64,000 nucleotides of DNA from Escherichia coli (GTDB lineage: Bacteria > Pseudomonadota > Gammaproteobacteria > Enterobacterales > Enterobacteriaceae), in assembly GCF_003018255.1 (NCBI RefSeq), contig NZ_CP027440.1; one strand, given 5' to 3'. The position numbers and the translations under genes are program-made. The notes under the pieces are model-generated. The model did no database searches and was not told the DNA's origin. It saw only the letters and a list, made by a program, of their open reading frames with translations. Shown in pieces: positions 12,603 to 33,941 of the stretch (position 1 is its first letter; the number at the start of each line of letters is the position of its first letter).

Positions 12603-12637
12603 CATATTTTGCTTAATCCGGGATTAAGCAAAATATG
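12603..12637 (-). promoter_or_regulatory. 35-bp perfect palindrome (17-nt arms, 1-nt centre) in the sinI-ratA spacer
   Basis: catattttgcttaatcc-g-ggattaagcaaaatatg. It lies 45 nt upstream of the ratA ATG and downstream of the hairpin at 12644-12667. It could be an RNA stem-loop (processing or stability) or a dimeric-protein operator. Confidence 0.5.
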
Positions 12638-12643
12638 CGGAAA

Positions 12644-12667
12644 CAGCATTCCCTTGCGGGAATGCTG
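12644..12667 (-). terminator. terminator-like hairpin just after sinI (possible attenuator before ratA)
   Basis: cagcattccc-ttgc-gggaatgctg is a perfect 10-bp stem with a 4-nt loop, 12 nt after the sinI stop. On the coding strand only TTTCC follows, so termination is likely partial at most. Confidence 0.4.
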
Positions 12668-13710: not shown

Positions 13711-15888
13711 TTATTTTTTGGTATACAGCACGCGTAAACCGTATCCCTGCAAGCCATCTCCCGCTTGTGCGCCATAGGTTTGCGCTGCTTCGCGGTTAGT
13801 GGCCGGAATCACAATGTCCTCATTGGAAGAGTTCGCCTGTGCACCCACTTCACCATTGATGCTCTTGCCGGTAAATTCCCACTTGTAGTCGTACTGCGCC
13901 ATCTCTTCGTCAGTCAGTTTTTCGACCTGCTGGAAGACACCGTCTTTATTGCTGTCACGCCACAAAACAAATCGATAAGTGTTGTTGAGCGGCAGCGGTT
14001 CTTTATCTTTACCTATCAGGTTGCTGGGTTTAGCTGCCCCCACACGATAGATAAATGCATTTAGCCCACCAATTTCTGCCCCGAGGAAAGTGACATCCAC
14101 ATAGTTACTGTCGTCGTAGGGCGCAGCTTTTGCTTTCCAGCGATAGGTGCCGGGTAAGGTACTGGAGAGGGTGACAGTGCCCTTTTCTTTATCTTGTTTA
14201 GCGATAAAAACGCAGGGGTTGTCGGTCGAGCAAGGCTTGTTGGTTAACGTCACTCGTTTGTCCTGCGCGTCGTAAAGCCGCGGCGTGAGGTTATCTTCCG
14301 GCAGCGCATCGCCATTGCGGTCGGTGTTATCGCCAAAGCTGTCGGTTACATCGAGATCCATCACCACACCATCAACGCCATCTGCCTGGGCGCTGGCTTC
14401 GTGGCTGTGGTTGTTCTCTTCCGGCACGTTCGCGATGTTATTAACAATCAACTCAATTTTACGGTCCTGCTGAACGGTGATTTCCACCACACCAGAGTTC
14501 TGTCGGTTGCCCTTTTCATCTTCCAGTGCCAGACGTACTCGCCAGGTATTGAGTTTTTCTTGTTCGGCTTTGTCAGAGCTGTACTGCCAGGCGGGCAGCA
14601 CCAGGTTCCAGTGGTTATTGTTACCCTCTGTCAGGGTATTCTCTTTGATAACCGGCATAACCAGCGTGCGGGCAGCATTGTTTTTCGCCTGCCATGACGC
14701 AGCGACAATTTTGTAGTGGTGGTTGATAAGCGCGTTAATGGTCCACTTACATTTTTCCAGCCCGACCGCCGCTTCAGGCGTATCTTTAATGACACACTCG
14801 GGGTGTTCGTTGGTGGCATCCGCTTTTAACCACAGGGTGACATCAAGCGGATCTTTTTCTTTGTATTCCAGAACAATAAAGTTATTACGCTCAACAAAAT
14901 CATGACGACTGCCCATCAACGAGTGAGCCGCTTTCACTTTATCGCTATCCAATTGATCTTTTAGCGGAACGCCGAACTGATAATTAAGAGTGGCATTAAT
15001 GCTGACATCGCTGTTATCTCCGGTCCCCGCTTTATAGTCCGCCCCAACGGTTAGTAATGGCACCGGTTGATAATTCAGTCCAAGTGTTACCGCGTAGGGA
15101 TCTTTCTCCAAATTATCCGTACCAAAAAGGGCAACTTCATCGCCGTAATATTGCTCGAAGACAACTTTGCCCCCCAGTTGCGGATAAGAAGGTAACCAGG
15201 CTTCGGCGCGAATATCCCAGCCGCGCGCAGGACGCTCCTCATAAAAATCGAAATCTTCGGAGTCTTTCCAGTCAGAAAGCGGATGATAATAGTTGCCAGA
15301 GAATTTTAAATAATCAGTCCACGCTTCGCCGCCTAAACCTAAACGGCGATGTCCTCGGGTAAAATCATAATCATAAAATATATTCCCGCCCAATAACCAT
15401 TCATTAAAATTATGTCTTACCCCAAGACCAATATTCCCGATTGTACGATCTTCTTTTCGCTGCGCAGAAAATTGACTGAAATAAACAGTGGTTTGATTAT
15501 CGTACCAGGGAACAAAATAATCGATGGAACTGCCATCCAGATCGCCGCCCTGGCCAATGGAGAGGTTCGAACGGACCTTACCGTAGGGAGAGAGAGTGTC
15601 TTCAATATAAGATTGTGCGGTTGAGGTGATTTGACTTTGCAGATAGCTTCTGGCCTGAGATTCCAGCGCCTCAGGGGTCAAGTTTTCAAACCCTTGCGTG
15701 GCGGAGTTGATGATGTAATCGGCTCCGCGCTCTTTCAGCGATTTACCCTTGTTGGTTTGTTCATCCTGCTGTGCTGCCTGGCTACCTAAATCAGGTAACG
15801 ATTCGTTTTGCTTAACATTTATCTCTGGTGCCGCGAAAGCAGCACCAGAGATAAATGTTAGAATAATACAGCGTTTCCATCGCAGCAT
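13711..15888 (-). CDS. sinH: intimin/invasin-like inverse autotransporter outer-membrane adhesin SinH (725 aa from ATG 15888)
   Basis: The ORF-track entry begins at 15918, but that codon is TTG. The ATG at 15886-15888 has AGGGAAAG upstream and yields the signal peptide MLRWKRCIILTFISGAAFA|AP. Diagnostic inverse-autotransporter beta-domain motifs are present: GWDIRAEAWLPSYPQLGGKVVFEQYYGDEVALFG and MGSRHDFVERNNFIVLEYKEKD. Compare intimin GYDIRAEAYLP...EQYYGD and LGSRYDLVQRNNNIILEY. Confidence 0.88.
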   Translation of the reverse strand: MLRWKRCIILTFISGAAFAAPEINVKQNESLPDLGSQAAQQDEQTNKGKSLKERGADYIINSATQGFENLTPEALESQARSYLQSQITSTAQSYIEDTLSPYGKVRSNLSIGQGGDLDGSSIDYFVPWYDNQTTVYFSQFSAQRKEDRTIGNIGLGVRHNFNEWLLGGNIFYDYDFTRGHRRLGLGGEAWTDYLKFSGNYYHPLSDWKDSEDFDFYEERPARGWDIRAEAWLPSYPQLGGKVVFEQYYGDEVALFGTDNLEKDPYAVTLGLNYQPVPLLTVGADYKAGTGDNSDVSINATLNYQFGVPLKDQLDSDKVKAAHSLMGSRHDFVERNNFIVLEYKEKDPLDVTLWLKADATNEHPECVIKDTPEAAVGLEKCKWTINALINHHYKIVAASWQAKNNAARTLVMPVIKENTLTEGNNNHWNLVLPAWQYSSDKAEQEKLNTWRVRLALEDEKGNRQNSGVVEITVQQDRKIELIVNNIANVPEENNHSHEASAQADGVDGVVMDLDVTDSFGDNTDRNGDALPEDNLTPRLYDAQDKRVTLTNKPCSTDNPCVFIAKQDKEKGTVTLSSTLPGTYRWKAKAAPYDDSNYVDVTFLGAEIGGLNAFIYRVGAAKPSNLIGKDKEPLPLNNTYRFVLWRDSNKDGVFQQVEKLTDEEMAQYDYKWEFTGKSINGEVGAQANSSNEDIVIPATNREAAQTYGAQAGDGLQGYGLRVLYTKK
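14854..15636 (-). other. SinH inverse-autotransporter beta-barrel plus linker region (approx. ORF residues 95-355)
   Basis: The region spans SQITSTAQSYIED... to ...FIVLEYKEKD and carries the intimin/invasin beta-domain motifs listed for sinH. Boundaries were estimated by eye. Confidence 0.6.
15813..15860. repeat. 19-bp perfect inverted repeat with 10-nt spacer inside the sinH signal-peptide codons
   Basis: taacatttatctctggtgc (15813-15831), spacer cgcgaaagca, then gcaccagagataaatgtta (15842-15860). It begins 28 nt downstream of the ATG at 15888 and encodes LTFISGAAFAAPEINV. Confidence 0.9.
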
Positions 15889-15918
15889 GCACTTTCCCTG
15901 TGACAATGATACAGTCAA

Positions 15919-16097
15919 AAATAAGCTTTAATATTGTATCCCTGATTATTCAGAAAGGCATGTCATAAAGAATAAATATACTCTTAATTATTTAAATTAG
16001 TGATTTCACTCAATTACATTAGTTATTCCACTAATAACAGATTGTTTTACCATTCACATATTAAATATAAATGATAAAACAATATATTCACATGATA
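15919..16097 (-). promoter_or_regulatory. AT-rich ~180-bp region upstream of sinH (presumed operon promoter / right island junction)
   Basis: This non-coding stretch between the yfgJ stop and sinH is visibly much more AT-rich than its flanks, with runs such as aataaatata, ttaaatataaatgataaaac and tatttaaattag. One sigma70-like pair on the - strand is TTCTGA-N16-TATTAA. No GATC sites and no simple-sequence tract were seen. Confidence 0.35.
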
Positions 16098-16313
16098 TTA
16101 AGCAATAACAAATTCAACGCGTTTTTTAGATATTAAACCGTGCCCATGTTGGCAGAAATAATCCACAACACCACAAGCTTTTAACACTTGTAACGGCTGA
16201 TGACACTCAGGGCAAAGTGCCTGGACGGTAAAGTCTTTGTCGCAAGTTGCACAGTGGGCAGTCTCGCCATTGCGTTCGAGAGGGATTTTGCAGGTTGGAC
16301 AGTTGAGTGCCAT
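16098..16313 (-). CDS. yfgJ: small double zinc-ribbon protein YfgJ (71 aa)
   Basis: The ORF has cysteine pairs CPTC, CATC and CPEC plus C..H.H. Its C-terminal half QPLQVLKACG.VDYFCQHGHGLISKKRVEF matches my recollection of YfgJ. SD GAGGAG lies upstream. Confidence 0.85.
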   Translation of the reverse strand: MALNCPTCKIPLERNGETAHCATCDKDFTVQALCPECHQPLQVLKACGVVDYFCQHGHGLISKKRVEFVIA

Positions 16314-16375
16314 AAATACTCCTCACGTGTTATTCGGTTTCCCTCTCCGTGTGGAAAGGGAAACCAGATAAGTGA

Positions 16376-17848
16376 TTACTTACTTTTCTTGATATGCTTC
16401 ATCAGGCGCTTACGTTTACGCATCTGGGTTGGCGTCAGGGTGTTACGCTTGTTCGCATACGGGTTTTCCCCTTCTTTGAACTGAATACGAATCGGCGATC
16501 CCATTACGTCCAGCGATTTGCGGAAGTAGTTCATCAAGTAACGCTTGTAGGAATCAGGCAGGTCTTTCACCTGGTTACCGTGAATCACCACAATCGGCGG
16601 GTTATAACCACCAGCGTGGGCATATTTCAGCTTCACACGACGACCGCGTACCAACGGCGGTTGGTGATCTTCAACAGCCATCGTCATGATGCGCGTCAGC
16701 ATAGAGGTCCCCACACGACGGGTGGAGCTGTCATACGCTTCACGTACTGATTCAAACAGATTACCAACACCACTGCCGTGCAAGGCTGAGATAAAATGCA
16801 CACGAGCAAAATCGATAAAGCCCAGACGGAAGTCCAGCGTTTCTTTCACCTGCTCTTTCACTTCCTGGCTCAGGCCATCCCACTTATTCACTACAATGAC
16901 AAGTGAGCGCCCACTATTGAGAATAAAGCCCAGCAACGAGAGATCCTGATCGGAAATACCTTCGCGGGCGTCAATCACCAACATCACCACGTTGGCATCT
17001 TCAATGGCCTGCAACGTTTTGATTACCGAGAATTTCTCTACAGCATCGGTGATTTTGCCGCGTTTACGTACGCCAGCGGTGTCAATGAGCACATACTCAC
17101 GTCCGTCGCGTTCCATTGGAATGTAGATGCTGTCACGCGTCGTGCCAGGCATGTCGTAAACAACAACGCGCTCTTCACCAAGAATACGGTTCGTGAGTGT
17201 AGACTTACCTACGTTCGGACGACCCACAATCGCCAGTTTGATCGGCAGACTTTGCGGGTCGAAGTCATCTTCCTCTTCTTCTTCGCCGTTTTCTTCTGCT
17301 TCAAATTGCGCCCAGTATTCAGCGTCTTCATCCACTTCTTCTTGTGGTGCGAGATCTTCCATCCACGGCAGCAGCACGTGCTCCAGCAGACTTAATACGC
17401 CACGACCGTGAGACGCGGCGATCGGGTAGATTTCCCCTAAACCAAGCGAGTAAAAATCAACTACCGCCTGATCAGGATCCAGCCCGTCAGTTTTGTTTGC
17501 CACCAGGAAGGTTGGCTTTTCGCGGGAGCGCAGATGTTTAGCAATAGCTTCATCCGCAGGCATCAGACCCGCGCGCGCATCGACCATAAACAGCACAACG
17601 TCCGCTTCTTCAATCGCCAGCAGCGACTGTTCCGCCATACGTGTCTCTACACCGTCTTCGGTGCCATCAATCCCGCCAGTATCAATACAAATAAACTCGC
17701 GGCCTTCAATTTCTGCACGACCGTATTTACGGTCACGAGTCAGACCTGGGAAATCCGCAACCAGCGCATCTCGTGTGCGAGTTAGACGGTTAAATAACGT
17801 GGATTTTCCTACGTTAGGGCGCCCGACAAGCGCGACCACAGGTACCAT
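16376..17848 (-). CDS. der: ribosome-associated GTPase Der/EngA (490 aa)
   Basis: ORF-track frame trimmed to the ATG 17846-17848 ([22 protein letters not shown]). There are two tandem GTPase domains, each with GRPNVGKST and a DT(A/G)G motif, and a KH-like C-terminus. Confidence 0.96.
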
Positions 17849-33825: not shown

Positions 33826-33841
33826 GCTTTTAACAGGCAAT

Positions 33842-33869
33842 AAAAAACCGCCGAATCTGGCGGTTTTTT
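33842..33869. terminator. bidirectional rho-independent terminator (sseA on +, sRNA copy 1 on -)
   Basis: aaaaaa-ccgcc-gaatct-ggcgg-tttttt: a GC stem flanked by an A-run and a T-run. Confidence 0.8.
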
Positions 33870-33941
33870 ATTGCTGGTCTGGTTCGCGGCCTTTCCAGCA
33901 GATTGGCTTGTGTTGCATGAGCAACGCAGGTGCTTCACAGC
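33842..33941 (-). ncRNA. candidate ~100-nt sRNA, copy 1 (RyfB/RyfC/TimR-like paralog with diverged 5' seed)
   Basis: - strand promoter TTGACA (33971-33976), 17 bp, GAGTAT (33948-33953), identical to copy 2. The transcript would end at the 33848-33863 hairpin plus U-run. The 5' end is predicted only from the promoter position. Confidence 0.5.

Follow-up and report, generated by a model that had tools for sequence, protein, structure and literature searches.

The window, a 64-kb stretch of Escherichia coli DNA analysed as a whole, carries on its minus strand sinH (iatB), whose start codon is identical in the RefSeq annotation (Table 1). SinH contributes to the fitness of extraintestinal pathogenic E. 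coli and is a vaccine candidate, and its upregulation in human urinary tract infection was reported (PMC9937491). The only candidate promoter element is a -10 hexamer, kept as TACAAT, TATAAT or TAGAAT in the Escherichia alleles; a sigma-70 consensus scan of positions 15600-16400 called no promoter, and no RfaH ops element was found near the gene. An IS1 element near sinH in one strain lies in the upstream intergenic region, away from the repeat described below. No publication on a sinH hairpin or on post-transcriptional regulation of sinH was found in the literature search.

Table 1. Features of sinH and of its inverted repeat, in coordinates of the 64-kb window.
Feature	Position	Strand	Sequence	Remarks
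sinH (iatB) CDS	13711..15888	-		725 aa, intimin-like inverse autotransporter (PMC6714894); ATG at 15888
Candidate -10 hexamer	15933..15938	-	TACAAT	putative
Shine-Dalgarno	15895..15899	-	AGGGA	6 nt before ATG; unpaired with the helix; conserved in orthologues
Predicted signal-peptide coding region	15832..15888	-	MLRWKRCIILTFISGAAFA	cleavage site from A-x-A rule
Predicted signal-peptidase site	between 15832 and 15831	-		between AFA and AP (-3/-1 rule), at spacer end
5' arm in sinH mRNA	15842..15860	-	UAACAUUUAUCUCUGGUGC	codons L10 (last 2 nt) to A16 (first 2 nt); + strand GCACCAGAGATAAATGTTA
Spacer	15832..15841	-	UGCUUUCGCG	10 nt
3' arm in sinH mRNA	15813..15831	-	GCACCAGAGAUAAAUGUUA	codons A20 to V25 and first nt of K26; + strand TAACATTTATCTCTGGTGC
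Arms with one T/G position allowed	15813..15834 and 15839..15860			22 nt each, 4-nt loop
Predicted tetraloop	15835..15838	-	UUUC	
Whole helix footprint	15806..15866	-		outer extension 15861-15866 with 15806-15811, A bulge at 15812

Near its start, sinH contains a perfect 19-nt inverted repeat, complementary without mismatch over the 19 nt and separated by a 10-nt spacer, which is the longest short-range inverted repeat of the window. The original prediction had described this repeat with correct coordinates, gene and reading frame, and its rough estimate that chance would give about 1e-5 such repeats per 64 kb was of the right order: 64 kb with the base composition of the window should contain 2.6e-6 perfect 19-nt repeats with spacers of up to 10 nt and 5e-6 with spacers of up to 20 nt. 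No second match to the 19-mer was found in the window with up to 3 mismatches allowed. The 5' arm begins at nt +29 of the coding sequence and encodes the hydrophobic core and c-region of the predicted signal peptide, and the 3' arm encodes the first residues of the predicted mature protein. Third codon positions face third codon positions across the helix, which leaves synonymous room for covariation.

In the mRNA, bases of the spacer were predicted to pair as well (UGC with GCG, as U.G, G-C and C-G), so that the window allele has 22 contiguous base pairs closed by a UUUC loop; other alleles reach as many as 28, interrupted by one bulge. Four of the six pairs of the outer extension were formed in the window allele and all six in the FUJ80154-type allele (28 bp). 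The helix spans nt +29 to +76 (from +23 in the extended alleles), just outside the footprint of the initiating ribosome, and dominates the predicted fold of the sinH 5' region. Its modelled energy was -43.7 kcal/mol at 25 °C, -37 at 37 °C, -34.2 at 42 °C and -13.0 at 80 °C, in agreement with the earlier expectation of a very stable helix of about 19 bp past the initiating ribosome.

The 151-nt region reached -57.1 kcal/mol, compared with -32.8 ± 3.6 in dinucleotide shuffles (z = -6.7). Against protein-preserving recodings the z-scores of the window region were -3.2 to -3.8 (p ≤ 0.002), and the fold of each Escherichia haplotype was more stable than those of synonymous variants coding for the same protein (z from -2.4 to -4.3, p 0.001-0.015). 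A scan with Rfam 15 returned only sub-threshold look-alikes of miRNA precursors, at 26 bits where 70-95 are required.

This sinH type was present in 1,697 complete E. coli genomes, and in about 98% of them all pairs of the helix were Watson-Crick or G·U. The exact perfect 48-mer was present in 1,020 genomes, a U.G allele in 466 and a G.U allele in 176, any other state being found in at most about 27 of the 1,697. The repeat is single-copy and confined to sinH: each of 1,491 genomes has it at a single place, phages gave no match, and the only "plasmid" matches were two 4.9-Mb records. A dispersed repeat (REP, MITE or IS end) was rejected on the grounds of one copy per genome and none in phages or mobile elements.

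The repeat is real, non-random and kept self-complementary by matched changes in both arms. This was evident from an alignment of 14 distinct haplotypes of E. coli, E. albertii, E. ruysiae, E. whittamii and Escherichia sp., in which 91% of the alignment cells were paired, compared with 33-49% in slid registers, and both sides had changed at six helix pairs. The covariation score was 0.150 versus 0.105 in shuffles, with none of 500 shuffles reaching 0.150, and RNAalifold gave the same helix. Pair 20/57 is U-A in the window, U.G in L001 and C-G in E. albertii. Pair 31/46 occurs as U-A, UxU (L058), A-U (L044) and G.U (L023), all through synonymous third positions of Gly and Ala codons. Other paired changes were non-synonymous: F to L with N to S, and T to L with V to S.

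Changes of larger extent were mirrored too. The UTME-7/L059 allele, carried by 11 genomes, has lost GGT (Gly) from the 5' arm and the reverse complement (TGG/CCA; Pro) from the 3' arm, and both triplets are present in outgroups. Adjacent double compensations were found in the arms of E. albertii, and in the FUJ80154-type allele the helix has grown outward through non-synonymous changes. The claim that nucleic-acid symmetry constrains the amino acids at this site is borne out by the paired non-synonymous changes and by the mirrored loss of Gly and Pro codons, and the mirror deletion directly supports the earlier idea of quasi-palindrome template switching.

Divergence between the window and the other Escherichia species was 5-14% in the arms, 28-31% in the flanks and 50-75% in the loop. 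The inner arm parts ATCTCTGG / CCAGAGAT (inner 8 bp) were invariant across Escherichia and the outer positions covaried; one or two unrepaired mismatches were present in the other species. The one signal specific to RNA was weak: transitions generating wobble pairs and those generating A.C stood at about 9:3 (binomial p = 0.07), and this asymmetry, not being significant, was not accepted as proof of selection on the sense RNA. No variant with an inverted spacer was found among 48 unique sequences or the genome matches, all of which were at least 95.8% identical to the forward-spacer queries.

Judging from the sequences compared, the long helix is a feature of the Escherichia lineage and not general to sinH, since it was missing from sinH of Salmonella enterica (z +0.8), of most Citrobacter and of most other genera, as well as from a second E. 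coli sinH type (57 genomes, E2348/69). Such orthologues show that SinH as a protein can do without the helix. The original prediction had proposed an alignment of orthologues; compensatory arm changes were indeed seen within Escherichia, but the long helix was missing in S. enterica and most other genera.

Most orthologues beyond Escherichia have a hairpin of 6-11 bp at the same place, with a CUGG/CCRG core, which in synonymous-recoding nulls was indistinguishable from the background given by the protein sequence. Their whole-region MFE z-scores ranged from -2.4 to +2.0, and the centred hairpin had a mean z of -0.6 (Stouffer -2.7, with lineages that are non-independent). The closest outgroups (Pseudocitrobacter) carry a hairpin of 10-11 bp at this site, that of Pseudocitrobacter vendiensis being the only individually clear one (z = -3.1). 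Family-wide conservation beyond Escherichia is therefore not claimed.

The reading tentatively preferred here, with a probability somewhat short of even, is a quasi-palindrome kept by template switching whose transcript helix would limit SinH synthesis. It would have arisen in the Escherichia lineage of sinH, within codons of the signal peptide and mature N-terminus, a stretch that tolerates amino-acid change. The arms would evolve in concert, a change in one being matched in the other, with intramolecular template switching during DNA replication as the most plausible source of the matched changes, and the matched states would then be retained. Template switching homogenises and expands inverted repeats, coding DNA included (PMC5941160, PMC8604942). 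The sinH repeat has properties of such a site, as a short-spacer repeat foldable as single-stranded DNA with indels and multi-nucleotide changes mirrored between its arms.

On the RNA side, the sense sinH mRNA would fold into a helix of 22-28 bp immediately beyond the ribosome at initiation. On a sparsely translated message the helix would form and offer RNase III a substrate of two helical turns; during translation it would be an unwinding barrier about 5 codons after the start, so that the lifetime of the message and its output would both depend on translation. Roughly 22 bp fit into the RNase III valley, two helical turns are the primary determinant of reactivity, and many in vivo sites fall in coding sequences (PMC6212723, PMC1540722). 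With 22-28 bp, the predicted helix has the size of a substrate, which is a quasi-continuous duplex of some two turns (about 20-22 bp). The most likely effect of the helix would be to limit SinH synthesis after transcription, and RNase III cleavage and ribosome pausing at the helix are plausible. A more specific proposal makes the helix an RNase III "fuse" of the sinH-sinI-adhesin operon that would be coupled to translation and have its complementarity continually renewed by template switching; this is possible but doubtful.

Several points count against the preferred reading: the long helix is missing from the orthologues named above, other Escherichia species have unrepaired mismatches, the RNA-specific signal is weak, and structure beyond about +15 generally has little effect on initiation. 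Neutral template switching also predicts the compensations and the mirror deletion, so that these leave selection on the RNA unproven. A function-free by-product of mutation was considered nearly as likely as the preferred reading: an ancestral short repeat would have been lengthened and kept perfect by template switching, the mRNA helix being unselected and its cost negligible. The proposed ancestral repeat lies in a substitution-tolerant part of the protein, where UCUGG (Ser-Gly) is opposite CCAGA (Pro-Glu), and a hairpin such as the 10-11 bp one of Pseudocitrobacter at the same place could have been the seed. The mirrored 3-nt deletions, the adjacent double compensations of E. albertii, the outward growth of the FUJ80154-type helix through non-synonymous changes, the missing long helix in Salmonella and other orthologues and the non-significant G.U excess all agree with such an origin. 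In relatives of E. coli, perfect inverted repeats are conserved beyond expectation via template switching, which has also been published as rewriting coding sequence (PMC5941160, PMC8604942). However, the T.G and G.T alleles are major and stable (466 and 176 genomes) and non-wobble mismatches rare, a prevalence that rapid DNA-level correction alone would not predict, as it treats all mismatches alike. Furthermore, the G of the L023 allele is not a templated product (the template would give A), the arms are about three times more conserved than the flanks, and spacer inversion, another outcome of template switching, was absent among the sequences examined.

Three further explanations were considered far less probable. 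The common T.G and G.T alleles, which break the symmetry of the DNA yet keep the RNA paired, speak against an element acting in DNA, either a palindromic site for a dimeric regulator or a cruciform in the early coding region, and this explanation was judged improbable. The invariant inner arms would suit it, as would the fact that a perfect palindrome works on both strands alike, but the outer arms covary with no fixed sequence, as expected of pairing rather than of base-specific protein contacts, the arms of 19-22 bp, growing to 28, far exceed operator half-sites, and at least about 65 nt separate the site from the only candidate promoter upstream of it. A GC-rich centre, such as that of this repeat, disfavours cruciform extrusion. 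Lower still was the probability given to an RNA thermometer, a hairpin masking the ribosome binding site or an attenuator, even though the hairpin is very stable and the gene, near whose start codon it lies, is associated with virulence. The helix was predicted to stay intact from 20 to 90 °C, with no melting between about 25 and 42 °C, and the ribosome binding site is untouched, the modelled unpaired probability of SD/AUG being 0.58 with the helix versus 0.51 in arm-recoded variants. Masking of the ribosome binding site and the thermosensor suggested by the original prediction were thus rejected, as was attenuation in the sense of an intrinsic terminator: the sequence after the helix, AAGCAAAACG, is no U-tract, and a terminator scan of 15600-16400 found none. 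A stimulator of -1 frameshifting was also rejected, as the upstream CGCUGUAUUAUUC lacks a slippery X XXY YYZ heptamer at the 5-9 nt from the helix where one would be needed. Least credible of all is a coincidence of amino-acid sequence and codon choice. Recodings of the protein do average -16 to -26 kcal/mol, because the SG and PE codons are partly complementary, and the short hairpins outside Escherichia do not stand out from the recoding background; the expected count of about 3e-6 per 64 kb, p ≤ 0.002 against synonymous recoding, and the covariation and mirrored indels across species contradict it.

Hairpins in signal-peptide codons have precedents. The fdnG/fdoG Tat signal-peptide mRNA hairpins, in work of Punginelli et al. 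from 2004, and the lamB signal-sequence mRNA hairpin, in that of Hall et al. from 1982, reportedly modulate translation. They share the location with the sinH helix. In length they fall short of its 22-28 bp, and they work at initiation or engage the ribosome binding site, which the lineage-specific sinH helix leaves open. With the RNase III-cleaved stem-loops of E. coli coding sequences (transcriptome-wide map in PMC6212723) it shares the position inside a coding sequence, an intramolecular helix some two turns long and, as the outcome to be expected, translation-sensitive decay of the mRNA; betT (PMC4067347) and eno (PMC6872547) are reported as such cleaved coding-region stem-loops. The sinH helix differs in being unusually perfect and in lying in signal-peptide codons. 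The map contains no sinH cleavage because the mapped strain, K-12, is without sinH. Quasi-palindromic hotspots of template switching (PMC7202029, PMC5941160; in yeast coding sequence, PMC8604942) show the same mirrored multi-nucleotide and indel changes of the arms, with non-synonymous changes as a side effect in both cases. Unlike them, the sinH repeat occurs naturally in bacterial coding DNA, was followed through several species and about 1,700 genomes, shows no spacer inversion and has wobble-only alleles that persist at high frequency.

For evolutionary analysis the locus calls for caution, as the clustered amino-acid changes found here would mimic positive selection. If the helix limits expression, SinH production could be studied or raised through it in a simple way. 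Should the translation-coupled "fuse" hold true, a mutational mechanism of replication and an RNA function would jointly dictate which amino acids make up the signal peptide and the mature N-terminus of this vaccine-candidate adhesin. Whatever its function, the repeat is a clean natural bacterial example of nucleic-acid symmetry shaping protein sequence, with paired non-synonymous substitutions, mirrored codon deletions and intermediates across about 1,700 genomes.

The predicted perfect 19-nt inverted repeat with a 10-nt spacer in the signal-peptide codons of sinH was reproduced in both coordinates and complementarity. The same open reading frame with the same start is annotated in E. coli RefSeq records as sinH, an intimin-like inverse autotransporter whose E. 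coli name is IatB (PMC6714894), and the window was 99.8% identical to E. coli chromosomes. The N-terminus of the product consists of MLRWKRCIILTFISGAAFA followed, after the predicted cleavage site, by APEINVK. The 5′ arm begins at nt +29 of the sinH mRNA and spans the codons for the hydrophobic signal-peptide core, the predicted A-F-A signal-peptidase site falls at the end of the spacer, and the 3′ arm covers residues one to six of predicted mature SinH. In this frame, codon position 3 faces position 3 and position 1 faces position 2; as one of three possible phasings, this arrangement carries no evidential weight by itself.

Coordinates of sinH, its inverted repeat, neighboring genes and other hairpin-forming repeats in the window
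Feature	Position	Strand	Description
sinH ORF	13711-15888	minus	725 codons; repeat inside, on coding strand
3′ arm (mRNA)	15813-15831	minus	TAACATTTATCTCTGGTGC on the plus strand
Spacer	15832-15841	minus	10 nt
5′ arm (mRNA)	15842-15860	minus	exact reverse complement of 15813-15831
der and zinc-ribbon gene (yfgJ)			upstream of sinH
SinI-family gene and 2,684-aa adhesin			downstream of sinH
First of two adjacent sinI-to-adhesin intergenic hairpins	12603-12637		perfect 17-nt palindrome CATATTTTGCTTAATCC-C-GGATTAAGCAAAATATG
Second intergenic hairpin	within 12603-12665		GC-rich 10-bp stem CAGCATTCCC-GCAA-GGGAATGCTG, then TTTCC
Inverted repeat	16036-16088		AT-rich, imperfect, 24 nt, 79% complementary; directly downstream of yfgJ-like stop codon, upstream of sinH promoter region
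Hairpin-forming repeat	16330-16371		19 nt, 84% complementary; between der and zinc-ribbon gene
Perfect repeat	33837-33874		16 nt, GCAATAAAAAACCGCC / GGCGGTTTTTTATTGC; resembles bidirectional terminator

Given the perfect palindrome between sinI and the adhesin gene, the sinH operon has a second long perfect hairpin. About 920 E. coli genomes carry this intergenic stretch at 99-100% conservation; in about 750 others, the match was confined to the first 100 nt and stood at 78%.

A chance origin of the sinH repeat was confirmed as unlikely, with 2.6e-6 perfect 19-nt repeats with a spacer of ≤10 nt expected per 64 kb of window composition; no other short-range inverted repeat in the window is as long. 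In RNA, the spacer contributes U.G, G-C and C-G pairs, yielding a 22-bp helix with a UUUC loop. The minimum free energy of the 151-nt region was -57.1 kcal/mol, compared to -32.8 ± 3.6 in dinucleotide shuffles (z = -6.7). Under a stricter null, in which synonymous codons were resampled with the protein unchanged, codons 5-37 gave -46.0 against -26.0 ± 5.2 (reached by 0 of 500 resamplings) and the 54-nt window -34.0 against -16.7 ± 5.3 (p = 0.002). A fair amount of structure is already present in this null, since Ser-Gly codons (UCUGG) partly complement Pro-Glu codons (CCAGA), and the repeat was probably seeded by this partial complementarity.

Among 5,426 complete E. coli genomes, 1,754 carry sinH. 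The hairpin region occurs in one copy per genome, with sinH as its sole location, and none was found in a search of phages. The exact perfect 48-mer was present in 1,020 complete genomes, a GCA->GCG allele with one U.G pair (Nissle 1917, ATCC 11775, clone D i14) in 466, a GGT->GGG plus GCA->GCT allele with one G.U pair in 176, a mirror-deletion allele in 11 (8 of them perfectly paired) and other near variants in about 24. Every core-helix pair was Watson-Crick or wobble in about 98% of the 1,697 genomes with window-type sinH. The other 57 of the 1,754 sinH-positive genomes carry a divergent, E2348/69-like sinH type without such a helix.

The divergent type (loci L026 from E2348/69, L074 and L086) is about 69% identical in nucleotides along part of the 5′ region, and its signal peptide reads MLRWSPVLFSIIWASASWA; an IS4 remnant adjoins the gene in E2348/69. 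In E. coli strain 200164 (L105), IS1 has inserted into the intergenic gap that separates sinH from the zinc-ribbon gene, about 230 nt 5′ of the start codon and away from the repeat. Two 4.9-Mb E. coli records with sinH in the plasmid collection PLSDB (H65, H66) resemble chromosomes misfiled as plasmids, and a 426-bp contig labelled Rhizobium wenxiniae (L020), with an encoded fragment 96% identical to E. coli SinH, is probably assembly contamination. In two metagenome contigs of 0.8-1.9x coverage (L066, L083), the sinH frame is broken by the loss of one base within the 5′ arm or immediately ahead of it; most likely these deletions are sequencing errors, and slippage at the repeat may be another source.

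For comparison, 19 genome loci and 77 metagenome loci provided 48 distinct 5′ sequences. Every member of the Escherichia clade (E. coli alleles, E. albertii, E. ruysiae, E. whittamii and Escherichia sp. E1V33) possesses the long helix. Its stability, taken over 54 nt, lies between -23 and -35 kcal/mol, and each sequence beat its own synonymous null (z from -2.4 to -4.3). Across 14 distinct haplotypes, 91.2% of cells were standard pairs, falling to 33-49% when the partner was slid by 1-3 columns; the covariation score was reached by 0 of 500 shuffles, and RNAalifold independently yielded the same helix. The compensatory changes sought by aligning orthologues were thus observed within Escherichia, with six pairs changed on both sides.

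Series at single pairs, numbered by alignment columns, give the likely order of changes. Pair 20/57 is U-A in the window, U.G in locus L001 and C-G in E. albertii, and at pair 19/58 the A-U of the window corresponds to G-C in E. albertii; jointly, these changes convert Phe to Leu in one arm and Asn to Ser in the other. In the UTME-7 allele, the A-U at pair 17/60 and the C-G at pair 18/59 of the window are replaced by C-G and U-A, respectively (Thr->Leu, Val->Ser), with an A x G intermediate in E. whittamii. Pair 31/46 shows U-A, U x U, A-U and G.U states, at synonymous third positions only. In the FUJ80154-type allele, three non-synonymous downstream changes (KQN -> EHK) complete six more pairs, resulting in a 28-bp helix with one bulge. 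The arms of other Escherichia species diverged from the window by 5-14%, compared to 28-31% for the immediately flanking codons and 50-75% for the loop.

Compared with all other Escherichia alleles and the outgroups, the UTME-7 (L059) allele is missing a Gly codon (GGT) from the 5′ arm together with the precise reverse complement of that triplet (TGG/CCA, a Pro codon) from the 3′ arm; its helix is still perfect and the protein two residues shorter. That two 3-nt deletions arose independently as mirror images is very improbable. One intramolecular template switch, with one arm copied from the other, would generate the mirror deletion exactly, in line with the quasi-palindrome correction proposed in the original prediction. 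Such switching at quasi-palindromes is an established process in E. coli (PMC7202029). For proteobacteria it has been put forward as a mechanism by which inverted repeats stay perfect (PMC5941160), and in yeast it was shown to rewrite coding sequence (PMC8604942). From the mirror deletion and these precedents, we infer that template switching is the main source of the paired arm changes, and the repeat has the comparative features of a template-switch site. The paired non-synonymous changes and the mirror codon loss in both arms also upheld the view that the amino-acid sequence is constrained by nucleic-acid symmetry.

The helix may, moreover, be maintained by selection on the sense RNA. T.G and G.T alleles, which break the symmetry in DNA yet still pair in RNA, are both major and stable, templating could not have produced the G of the G.U allele, and non-wobble mismatches are rare in E. 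coli, although one or two mismatches are tolerated in other Escherichia species. The better conservation of the arms than of their flanks points the same way, but is equally expected if each change must suit two codons, and the ratio of wobble-generating to A.C-generating transitions, about 9:3, was not significant (p = 0.07). The helix may be a selected RNA element or a neutral by-product, the data being compatible with either.

Outside Escherichia, most orthologues showed a hairpin of 6-11 bp in the corresponding position, some in a different frame or different amino acids (e.g., Atlantibacter, Superficieibacter, Citrobacter freundii), with a clean 11-bp stem in the closest outgroup, Pseudocitrobacter vendiensis. 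These hairpins were mostly indistinguishable from the synonymous-null background (centred-hairpin mean z = -0.6; Stouffer -2.7, with non-independent lineages), and Salmonella enterica sinH gave z = +0.8. Such values indicate that the long helix is an Escherichia-lineage extension and no general property of sinH; its forerunner may have been a short ancestral hairpin.

Concerning function, the suggested thermosensor was not supported, as the helix is predicted to stay intact at 20-90 °C (-37.1 kcal/mol at 37 °C, -13.0 at 80 °C) and not to alter SD/AUG accessibility (0.58 with the helix versus 0.51), which likewise speaks against masking of the ribosome-binding site. The suggested attenuation by a terminator was not supported either, as no U-tract lies 3′ of the helix. 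A frameshift signal was rejected because no slippery site was present, the helix region matched no Rfam family, and the repeat did not qualify as a dispersed repeat.

The helix starts at +29, or at +23 in extended alleles, beyond the edge of the initiating ribosome at roughly +15; initiation should therefore go ahead, and the first elongating ribosome would reach the helix after about five codons. Reactivity with E. coli RNase III is determined primarily by two helical turns; roughly 22 bp fit into the valley of the enzyme, and many of its in vivo sites lie in coding regions (PMC1540722, PMC6212723). At 22-28 bp, the sinH helix provides this two-turn determinant and is structurally suited as a substrate. 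The best guess from these predictions is a translation-coupled decay and throttle element, which would restrict SinH to low levels except when its message is being translated well. The helix is reminiscent of the signal-peptide hairpins of fdnG and lamB, and the locus behaves like both RNase III-controlled coding-region hairpins and quasi-palindrome hotspots. A literature search on the sinH hairpin found no publication. The repeat offers a natural and experimentally accessible example of nucleic-acid symmetry shaping the N-terminus of a protein, here in an adhesin gene of clinical relevance.
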